This document shows positions 44,847 to 44,984 of a DNA stretch of 64,000 nucleotides, piece after piece. The translations under genes were made by a program, and so were the position numbers. Every line of letters starts with the position of its first letter. Positions within the stretch are counted from its first letter, which is position 1. The stretch is taken from positions 46,765-110,764 of IMG/VR virus record IMGVR_UViG_2706795367_000001; one strand, 5' to 3'. The notes beneath the pieces were generated by a model that was given only the letters and a program-made list of their open reading frames with translations, did no database searches and was not told where the DNA came from. The DNA comes from a virus (Duplodnaviria; Caudoviricetes).

Positions 44847-44984
44847 TCGAGGGTGTAGCTCAATAGAATAGAGCACCGTCGCATCCCCGCGTTGAGGACC
44901 GCTAAGCGGTGTGGGGACGGGACCGCGGAAGATGCCGGTAGGTGACCTCGCCAGTATGGGGCGGGCAAATCCGGCCACCCGAAT
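44847..44984 (+). ncRNA. expanded tRNA-like element
   Basis: GGGTG/CACCC acceptor, D arm TA-GCTC-AATAGAATA-GAGC-A, T stem GCCGG/CCGGC; insertions in anticodon and T loops. Confidence 0.6.

Follow-up and report, generated by a model that had tools for sequence, protein, structure and literature searches.

The stretch of DNA analysed here, referred to as the window, is 64,000 nucleotides long and corresponds to the right part (positions 46765-110764) of a virus record of 110,764 bp. Its sequence identifies the phage as a cluster J (Omegavirus) mycobacteriophage. In a blastn search against phages, the region around the element under study is 97% identical to Hannaconda and Omega, and is related also to LittleE, Thibault, Pound, Baka and around 30 further phages. 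According to PHROG matches, the last recognisable gene upstream ends at 44603 and the next downstream gene begins at 45494, hence the element is surrounded by an 890-nt stretch without a credible gene. The proteins neighbouring it all belong to PHROGs of unknown function and therefore offer no functional lead. The element itself is an RNA gene of about 135 bases, predicted to fold as a cloverleaf-like four-way junction at 44851-44980. A tRNA-Gly gene and, further downstream, a tRNA-Tyr gene follow it. The coordinates of all these features and of the parts of the element are collected in Table 1.

Table 1. Features of the element and of its surroundings in the window
Feature	Position	Strand	Sequence	Basis and remarks
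Extended -10 promoter (putative)	44793-44801	+	TGG-TAGAGT	Alignment of five phages; start inferred near A44809
5' leader hairpin	44810-44849	+	Invariant loop UACCUCUG (44824-44831)	RNAalifold and MFE
Acceptor-like stem	44851-44855 / 44976-44980	+	GGGTG / CACCC	5 pairs, invariant in 5/5 phages
U8-A9	44856-44857	+	TA
D arm	44858-44861 / 44871-44874	+	GCTC / GAGC	9-nt loop AAUAGAAUA; U8-A9, D arm and position 26 together span 44856-44875
Anticodon-stem equivalent	44876-44879 / 44925-44928	+	CCGT / GCGG	4 bp
Anticodon-arm insert, lower helix	44884-44890 / 44911-44917	+	TCCCCGC / GTGGGGA
Anticodon-arm bulge	44891-44897	+	GUUGAGG	7 nt
Anticodon-arm insert, upper helix	44898-44902 / 44906-44910	+	ACCGC / GCGGT	UAA triloop
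Variable loop	44929-44933	+	AAGAT	5 nt; A44, A45, G46, A47 and U48 in tRNA numbering
T stem	44934-44938 / 44971-44975	+	GCCGG / CCGGC	5 bp
T-arm hairpin	44947-44952 / 44960-44965	+	CTCGCC / GGCGGG	6 bp; 7-nt loop AGUAUGG
Acceptor 3' strand and tail	44976-44983	+	CACCC + GAA	No encoded CCA; tail GAAUUU
3' segment of the competing helix	44983-44990	+	AUUUGCCC	Complementary to GGGCAAAU (44963-44970) in the T-arm insert
tRNA-Gly(UCC)	45069-45141	+		ARAGORN and Rfam, 61.4 bits; within the 890-nt gene-free stretch
tRNA-Tyr(GUA)	46241-46313			ARAGORN and Rfam, 41.7 bits only; downstream of tRNA-Gly

The tRNA-Tyr of the window is a normal GUA tRNA, unlike its homologue in Omega (locus L002, 2970-3043), for which ARAGORN gives a four-base 'anticodon' (gtaa) in an 8-nt loop and GenBank has tRNA-OTHER. 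Directly 5' of the tRNA-Tyr, at 46138-46219, lies a DUF3800-IV-like RNA that scored 42.9 bits (gathering score 60.7, E 6e-5) and in which both conserved hairpin loops are present; a domain search of the phage genome detected no DUF3800 protein. A second tRNA mimic was observed at 44671-44736. Its anticodon arm is replaced by an 8-bp arm capped with a GAGA tetraloop and its T arm carries TTCGATT, and it gave only a weak match, to the tRNA-Sec model (19.8 bits). This mimic is kept in Hannaconda, Omega and LittleE and absent in Pound. Its 5' acceptor strand, GCGCACG, recurs in a mini-tRNA located at 11055-11105, in which the 7-bp acceptor (GCGCACG/CGTGCGC) and the T arm (CAAGG-TTCAAAT-CCTTG) are both perfectly paired. 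Between them lie a D-like hairpin and an anticodon arm reduced to a stub (ACGAATTCGT); an ACCA is encoded, and a hairpin and T6 terminator follows, to about 11175. The mini-tRNA was not called by ARAGORN and could be either a CCA-end decoy or a chargeable minihelix. On the minus strand, at about 5350-5380, another perfect T arm (GTGAG-TTCGAAT-CTCAC) probably represents, within attP, the copy of the host tRNA-Leu 3' half which has been described for cluster J phages (PMC3706429).

Folding predictions show the element as a tRNA-type four-way junction. Given the five homologous sequences and no prior, RNAalifold returned a 5' hairpin followed by a four-way junction composed of the acceptor, the D arm, a long arm and the T stem around a hairpin. 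In each of the five phages, the unconstrained minimum free energy (MFE) structure, computed from the inferred start to the 3' end of the acceptor, was exactly the cloverleaf. Its folding energy is what the GC content would lead one to expect (z -0.8 to -1.0). When the sequence was read over 44847-44984, each stem listed in the initial annotation was present in its place, while some of the details required amendment. The acceptor stem exists but has only five Watson-Crick pairs, the next two positions being mismatched and variable between phages. The helices described as some 45 nt filling the anticodon loop are also there; what they form, however, is a closed, bulged helix of 49 nt, and no 7-nt loop is left. 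In this closed arm (44876-44928), CCGU/GCGG leads through an internal loop into two stacked helices, with no U33. The T stem and the hairpin beyond it were likewise found, but the proposed ending of the stem in CAAAT is one of two equivalent readings, as UAGG/hairpin/AAU can be read equally well as U/hairpin/CAAAU. The T arm (44934-44975) in the former reading encloses UAGG, a 2-bp step (UG/CA), the hairpin of about 25 nt and AAU, so that the TΨC loop is interrupted. In Omega and Pound the tip and the length of the T hairpin differ on the same stem core.

Judged by its sequence, the scaffold is clearly tRNA-derived. The first 30 nt of the element, comprising the 3' part of the acceptor strand and the D arm, match many annotated phage tRNA genes at 86-96%. 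A deletion scan was also carried out, in which every pair of one anticodon-region and one T-region segment was removed and ARAGORN was run on the product. tRNA calls were obtained for 14 of the 78,880 pairs of the real sequence, whereas none of 154 dinucleotide shuffles put through the same scan gave any call; hence the scaffold is tRNA-like beyond chance. The description of the element as a tRNA scaffold with structured insertions in both the anticodon and T loops was thus accurate, on the evidence of RNAalifold, the MFE structures, the shuffle control and the D-arm matches.

The classical tRNA core contacts are part of textbook tRNA structure, and it is on this basis that the core residues of the element were read. 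Those kept by position are U8, A9 with U12-A23, A14, A21, A15 with U48, and G46 with C13-G22; A14, A15 and A21 are held by the D arm, in which the loop lacks G18-G19, the pair of Gs by which a tRNA ordinarily docks onto its T loop. From their positions, A15-U48 and G46 with C13-G22 would fit the classical contacts. Like a canonical elongator tRNA (RF00005), the element has the order and spacing of the acceptor, U8-A9 and a 4-bp D stem with A14, A21 and position 26, followed by a variable loop of 5 nt in which G46 and U48 are present and by a 5-bp T stem adjoining the 3' strand of the acceptor; it also shares its strand and its cluster with tRNA-Gly and tRNA-Tyr. Compared feature by feature with RF00005, the D arm and the core residues (U8, A14, A21, R15-Y48 and G46) are present with G18-G19 missing. 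In place of a 7-bp acceptor with discriminator and CCA there are five pairs and no CCA; in place of a 5-bp anticodon stem with a 7-nt loop, U33 and purine 37 there is a 4-bp stem under the UAA-capped 49-nt helix; and the T stem is there but its 7-nt TΨC loop is split by the hairpin of about 25 nt. The native sequence received no ARAGORN call, with or without the intron mode, and the Rfam tRNA model RF00005 (threshold 29 bits) had no match over 44847-44984 even at E up to 10. Since hairpins replace the anticodon loop and split the T loop, the element should be unable to read codons. The lack of an anticodon loop and of a D/T elbow, together with the short acceptor, leaves hardly any prospect of decoding, and makes charging unlikely.

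Upstream of the element, the alignment of the five phages shows a pattern such as a mycobacterial extended -10 promoter would have. The putative hexamer reads TAGAGT, CAGAGT, TAAAGT or TACAAT, and its A2 and T6 as well as the upstream TG are invariant. A consensus scanner, which requires a -35 hexamer, gave no promoter match near the element. The same scanner needs an unbulged stem to call a terminator, and for these reasons the promoter and the LittleE terminator described below rest on our reading of the sequence and on the LittleE fold. The leader hairpin that would follow the start has three doubly changed pairs in its outer stem (AU/GC, AU/GC and UG/GC) when Pound, the window phage and the rest are compared by RNAalifold. 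The homology of Pound to the other carriers of the element begins at the promoter, the promoter region being common with the Thibault type, and the mosaic joint therefore coincides with the 5' edge of the unit. At the other end, the homology of LittleE stops two bases past the acceptor and is succeeded by a bulged 10-bp hairpin (-17.1 kcal/mol) and U6, which reads as the element's own terminator. LittleE has the element and lacks the tRNA-Gly. In view of the promoter-like -10, the covarying 5' hairpin and the LittleE terminator, the element looks like a stand-alone RNA gene, and from these sequence comparisons it looks to have travelled between phages as a module that brings its own start and, in LittleE, also its own stop. 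In the window phage the promoter/terminator scanner found no terminator between the element and the tRNA-Gly, and the two are probably co-transcribed. A search of the literature yielded no RNA-seq paper on cluster J phages.

With blastn against phages, the element was found only in the window phage, Hannaconda, Omega, LittleE and Pound. When viral, genome and metagenome contigs were scanned for exact patterns, only Omega, LittleE and chance matches (L007, L011-L019) came up, and at the chance sites in L011-L019 the covariance model had no match. A covariance model search gave nothing new in the phage's own genome, in the type B loci of cluster J or in 36 IMG/VR loci, the latter having been gathered via the two flanking proteins. 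Type B refers to a different, ORF-poor sequence of about 260 nt that fills the slot of the element in about 27 other cluster J phages (Thibault, L008, 1240-1500), lying between the same promoter and tRNA-Gly and at least 99% identical among its carriers. Its MFE structure is multibranched (z -2.2), with a T arm (GGGTTCGATTCCC) adjoining the closing stem, and on this prediction it could be an alternative 'expanded tRNA-like' RNA. An abiF RNA motif (RF03085) was detected in Thibault (L008, 1195-1231) at 54.9 bits, with a gathering score of 37, and was seen as well in Pound (L004, about 1455-1491) and LittleE, immediately 5' of the extended -10 promoter. The motif is absent from the window phage's own genome; where it occurs, it could represent a phage-borne version of an RNA associated with an abortive-infection system.

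We consider it somewhat better than an even chance that the element is a stand-alone gene for a tRNA-derived, non-decoding RNA that works by being bound, the mechanism being the weakest part of this explanation. Transcription would start near 44809 from the element's own extended -10 promoter, the 5' hairpin would be protective, and the transcript would end at the element's own terminator, as in LittleE, or run on into the tRNA-Gly, as in the window phage. The RNA would hardly be charged or read codons, and there is no sign of its being spliced. It would accumulate as a stable RNA with a tRNA core and two long rods, and would act by being bound, which is the weakest step. Two options may be considered for this step: a host or defence factor that takes hold of the tRNA body could be diverted by the RNA acting as a decoy or sponge, or the RNA could be a scaffold showing three invariant single-stranded motifs, namely UACCUCUG in the leader loop, GUUGAGG in the bulge and UAGG in the inner loop. 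The RNA-rich neighbourhood, with the second mimic, the tRNAs and the DUF3800-IV-like RNA, would fit, along with Pnk and RNA ligase, an RNA-based counter-defence toolkit. The CCA-ended mini-tRNA with its terminator and, in sister phages, the abiF motif beside the promoter would agree with such a toolkit as well.

A broader proposal can be built on this explanation, and we regard it as speculative and, in its full extent, unlikely. It holds that the RNAs with a tRNA body in cluster J (the element, the RNAs at 44671-44736 and 11055-11105, and the type B sequence) may be an arsenal of decoys or inhibitors of host tRNA-directed defences, in which the element would be a display scaffold. If so, the element would be a natural 'tRNA scaffold' whose anticodon loop and elbow have been replaced by partner-binding display helices, and would represent a new class of tRNA-core RNA. 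Should the element be a decoy for a tRNA-directed defence, an arm of RNA mimicry would be added to the proposed idea of repair by Pnk, ligase and tRNA.

The alternative that survives best, although we judge it unlikely, is that of a young tRNA pseudogene, that is to say a phage tRNA gene with two insertions, drifting and functionless, whether transcribed or not. The tRNA core residues could then be mere inheritance, and it is in keeping with such an origin that about 27 other cluster J phages do without the element and have another sequence in its slot. The copies, moreover, are too alike to demonstrate selection; being 87-94% identical, they provide only thin covariation. The acceptor, D and T stems are invariant and there is no double compensatory change inside the cloverleaf, and this invariance is therefore uninformative on selection either way. 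Variable columns are rarer at paired than at unpaired positions (4/64 vs 18/73, p = 0.004), but the difference is lost when the replaced tip of the T hairpin is set aside (4/64 vs 6/51, p = 0.33). A functionless relic is nevertheless difficult to reconcile with several observations. The modelled pairs, 32 in all, form without exception in each of the five sequences, and the four substitutions within the anticodon-arm helices all remain paired through G-U. Both inserts are clean helices. The promoter-like -10 with its invariant A2 and T6, the covarying 5' hairpin and the LittleE terminator have all been kept, and the unit has moved as a module between different flanks. In the comparison of relatives that had been suggested as a check on the initial annotation, the stems are intact in 5/5 with the T-hairpin tip differing, but the invariance of the acceptor, D and T stems carries no information. 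Altogether, the evidence for selection on the element is modest. The inserts were found to be unique in the window phage genome, and an origin from a repeat or MITE was rejected on that account.

Less likely again is a role in cis, in which the element would be a leader, a processing element or an RNA switch governing the processing by RNase P/E, or the stability, of the tRNA-Gly transcript. The element lies between the promoter and the tRNA-Gly in four of the five phages and, as stated, no terminator was found in the window. This reading is retained mainly on account of a competing helix formed with the 3' flank, an inverted repeat which lengthens from 8 bp in the window to 11 bp in Hannaconda and 15 bp in Omega and Pound, and which does not exist in LittleE. 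When 32 nt of 3' flank are included, the MFE structure shifts in four phages from the cloverleaf to the competing helix, which is better by about 4-12 kcal/mol, and so beats the cloverleaf in the longer transcripts; for the three homologues that have the complementary segment the gain is 4.5 to 12 kcal/mol. The helix may act as a switch in processing, or it may be what an inverted duplication has left behind. A role in cis is opposed by LittleE, where the element has its own terminator and neither the tRNA-Gly nor the complementary 3' segment, and by the other cluster J phages, which have the same tRNA-Gly behind quite a different leader. Between the element and the tRNA-Gly, Omega (L002) and Pound (L004) carry an extra GC-rich, self-complementary insertion of about 74 nt (AGCGGCC...GGCCGCC) that is absent in the window and Hannaconda.

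The initial annotation had also entertained an intron-like tRNA that could be matured by phage Pnkp and ligase, and this proposal was not supported. It would make the element a tRNA precursor with two intervening sequences, from which Pnk and RNA ligase of the phage would restore a working tRNA by joining the exons, and we consider it very improbable. The window phage does encode an RNA ligase and a Pnk-type kinase, and 'enigmatic' introns are known in the tRNAs of Lak megaphages (PMC6784885). However, no consistent excision could be found. The 14 called deletion pairs yield four 'anticodons' (GUG, CAU, GCU and CCU), all of them made at artificial junctions, and the products have two acceptor mismatches, over-long variable regions and no proper anticodon-loop context. 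In its intron mode, ARAGORN made no call on the native sequence or on 308 deletions of the T insert. Next to the anticodon stem there is no U33 or purine-37 context, and at the junctions of the insert there is a plain internal loop (4 x 7) and not a bulge-helix-bulge (BHB), that is, two 3-nt bulges 4 bp apart. A tRNA-splicing endonuclease domain (PF01974) is missing from the window phage genome. The catalytic core of group I introns is over 200 nt in length, for which inserts of 49 and about 25 nt are far too small, and neither a group I intron nor any other Rfam family matched on the element's own strand. Archaeal tRNA introns may also sit in the T loop. The element resembles archaeal multi-intron tRNAs and the Lak megaphage tRNA introns (PMC6784885) in having extra sequence inside a tRNA-type gene, but in contrast to archaeal BHB introns it shows no bulge-helix-bulge, no splicing endonuclease domain in its genome and no clean mature tRNA after excision. 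Finally, Pnk and RNA ligase occur in all cluster J phages (PMC3706429) and do not co-vary with the element, which most of these phages lack.

The least probable explanation, and one we scarcely credit, is that the locus codes for a protein, the candidate being gp175 of the Hannaconda annotation, a minus-strand ORF corresponding to window 44631-45026. Four of the five phages have this frame open throughout the element. Against a protein, a 1-nt deletion interrupts the frame in Pound, the N-terminal part is in different frames in the window and in Hannaconda, the amino-acid replacements among the copies show no sign of a conserved protein, no Pfam family was found in the ORFs overlapping the element, the ORF is antisense to every neighbouring gene, and the existing annotations conflict (minus-strand gp175 in Hannaconda, plus-strand gp190 and gp191 in Omega, gp187 in LittleE and none in Pound). 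The five copies of the element differ by 1-nt indels and the plus-strand frames contain stops. Most likely, Omega gp190/gp191, LittleE gp187 and Hannaconda gp175 are mis-calls over an RNA gene.

Among known systems, the engineered 'tRNA scaffold' for recombinant RNA, reportedly described by Ponchon and Dardel in 2007, is similar to the element in carrying a foreign helix in place of the anticodon stem-loop. The engineered scaffold, however, needs intact D and T loops for processing and stability, whereas the T loop of the element also carries an insert. YrlA and other bacterial Y RNAs are non-decoding tRNA mimics present in M. smegmatis and in some mycobacteriophages (PMC4201824). YrlA has a permuted order of arms, intact T and D loops, a Ro60-binding stem and an adjoining Ro60 gene (PMC4201824), and the element is unlike it in these respects. 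A domain search of the window phage genome found no TROVE/Ro60 domain, there was no Rfam match on the element's strand and the T loop is broken; identity with YrlA or a Y RNA was thus rejected. The cluster J phage paper makes no mention of the element RNA.

The closest published analogue is RNA C of phage T4, which is of similar size and layout and likewise lies in a tRNA cluster and on the strand of the tRNAs. RNA C and RNA D (species 1 and 2, rnaC/rnaD) are stable RNAs of unknown role encoded in the tRNA cluster of that phage (PMC3014915). Folding of RNA C from the T4 record gave a 139-nt RNA made up of a closing stem, a pair of long hairpins and a T arm of canonical type (GGGUUCGAAUCCC). 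The two RNAs differ in what has been retained, as RNA C keeps the T arm and loses the D and anticodon arms, whereas the element keeps the D arm and the core, and no sequence resemblance was seen between the T4 RNAs and the element. As far as sequence can tell, the element has the characteristics of the T4 RNA C/D type (about 120-140 nt, non-decoding, with tRNA-like parts, on the tRNA strand and in a tRNA cluster), a type that is to be understood as a loose kind and not as a homology family. With its interrupted T loop, the element is a variant new to this kind. Natural variants with the element, without it, or with another RNA in its slot are available, and deletion or swap experiments on M. 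smegmatis would therefore be straightforward. Phage tRNA clusters have long been known to contain stable RNAs that are not tRNAs, of which the element is a clear case in tractable mycobacteriophages, and it is best regarded, alongside T4 RNA C and RNA D, as a further poorly understood phage tRNA look-alike RNA and not as a tRNA with introns.
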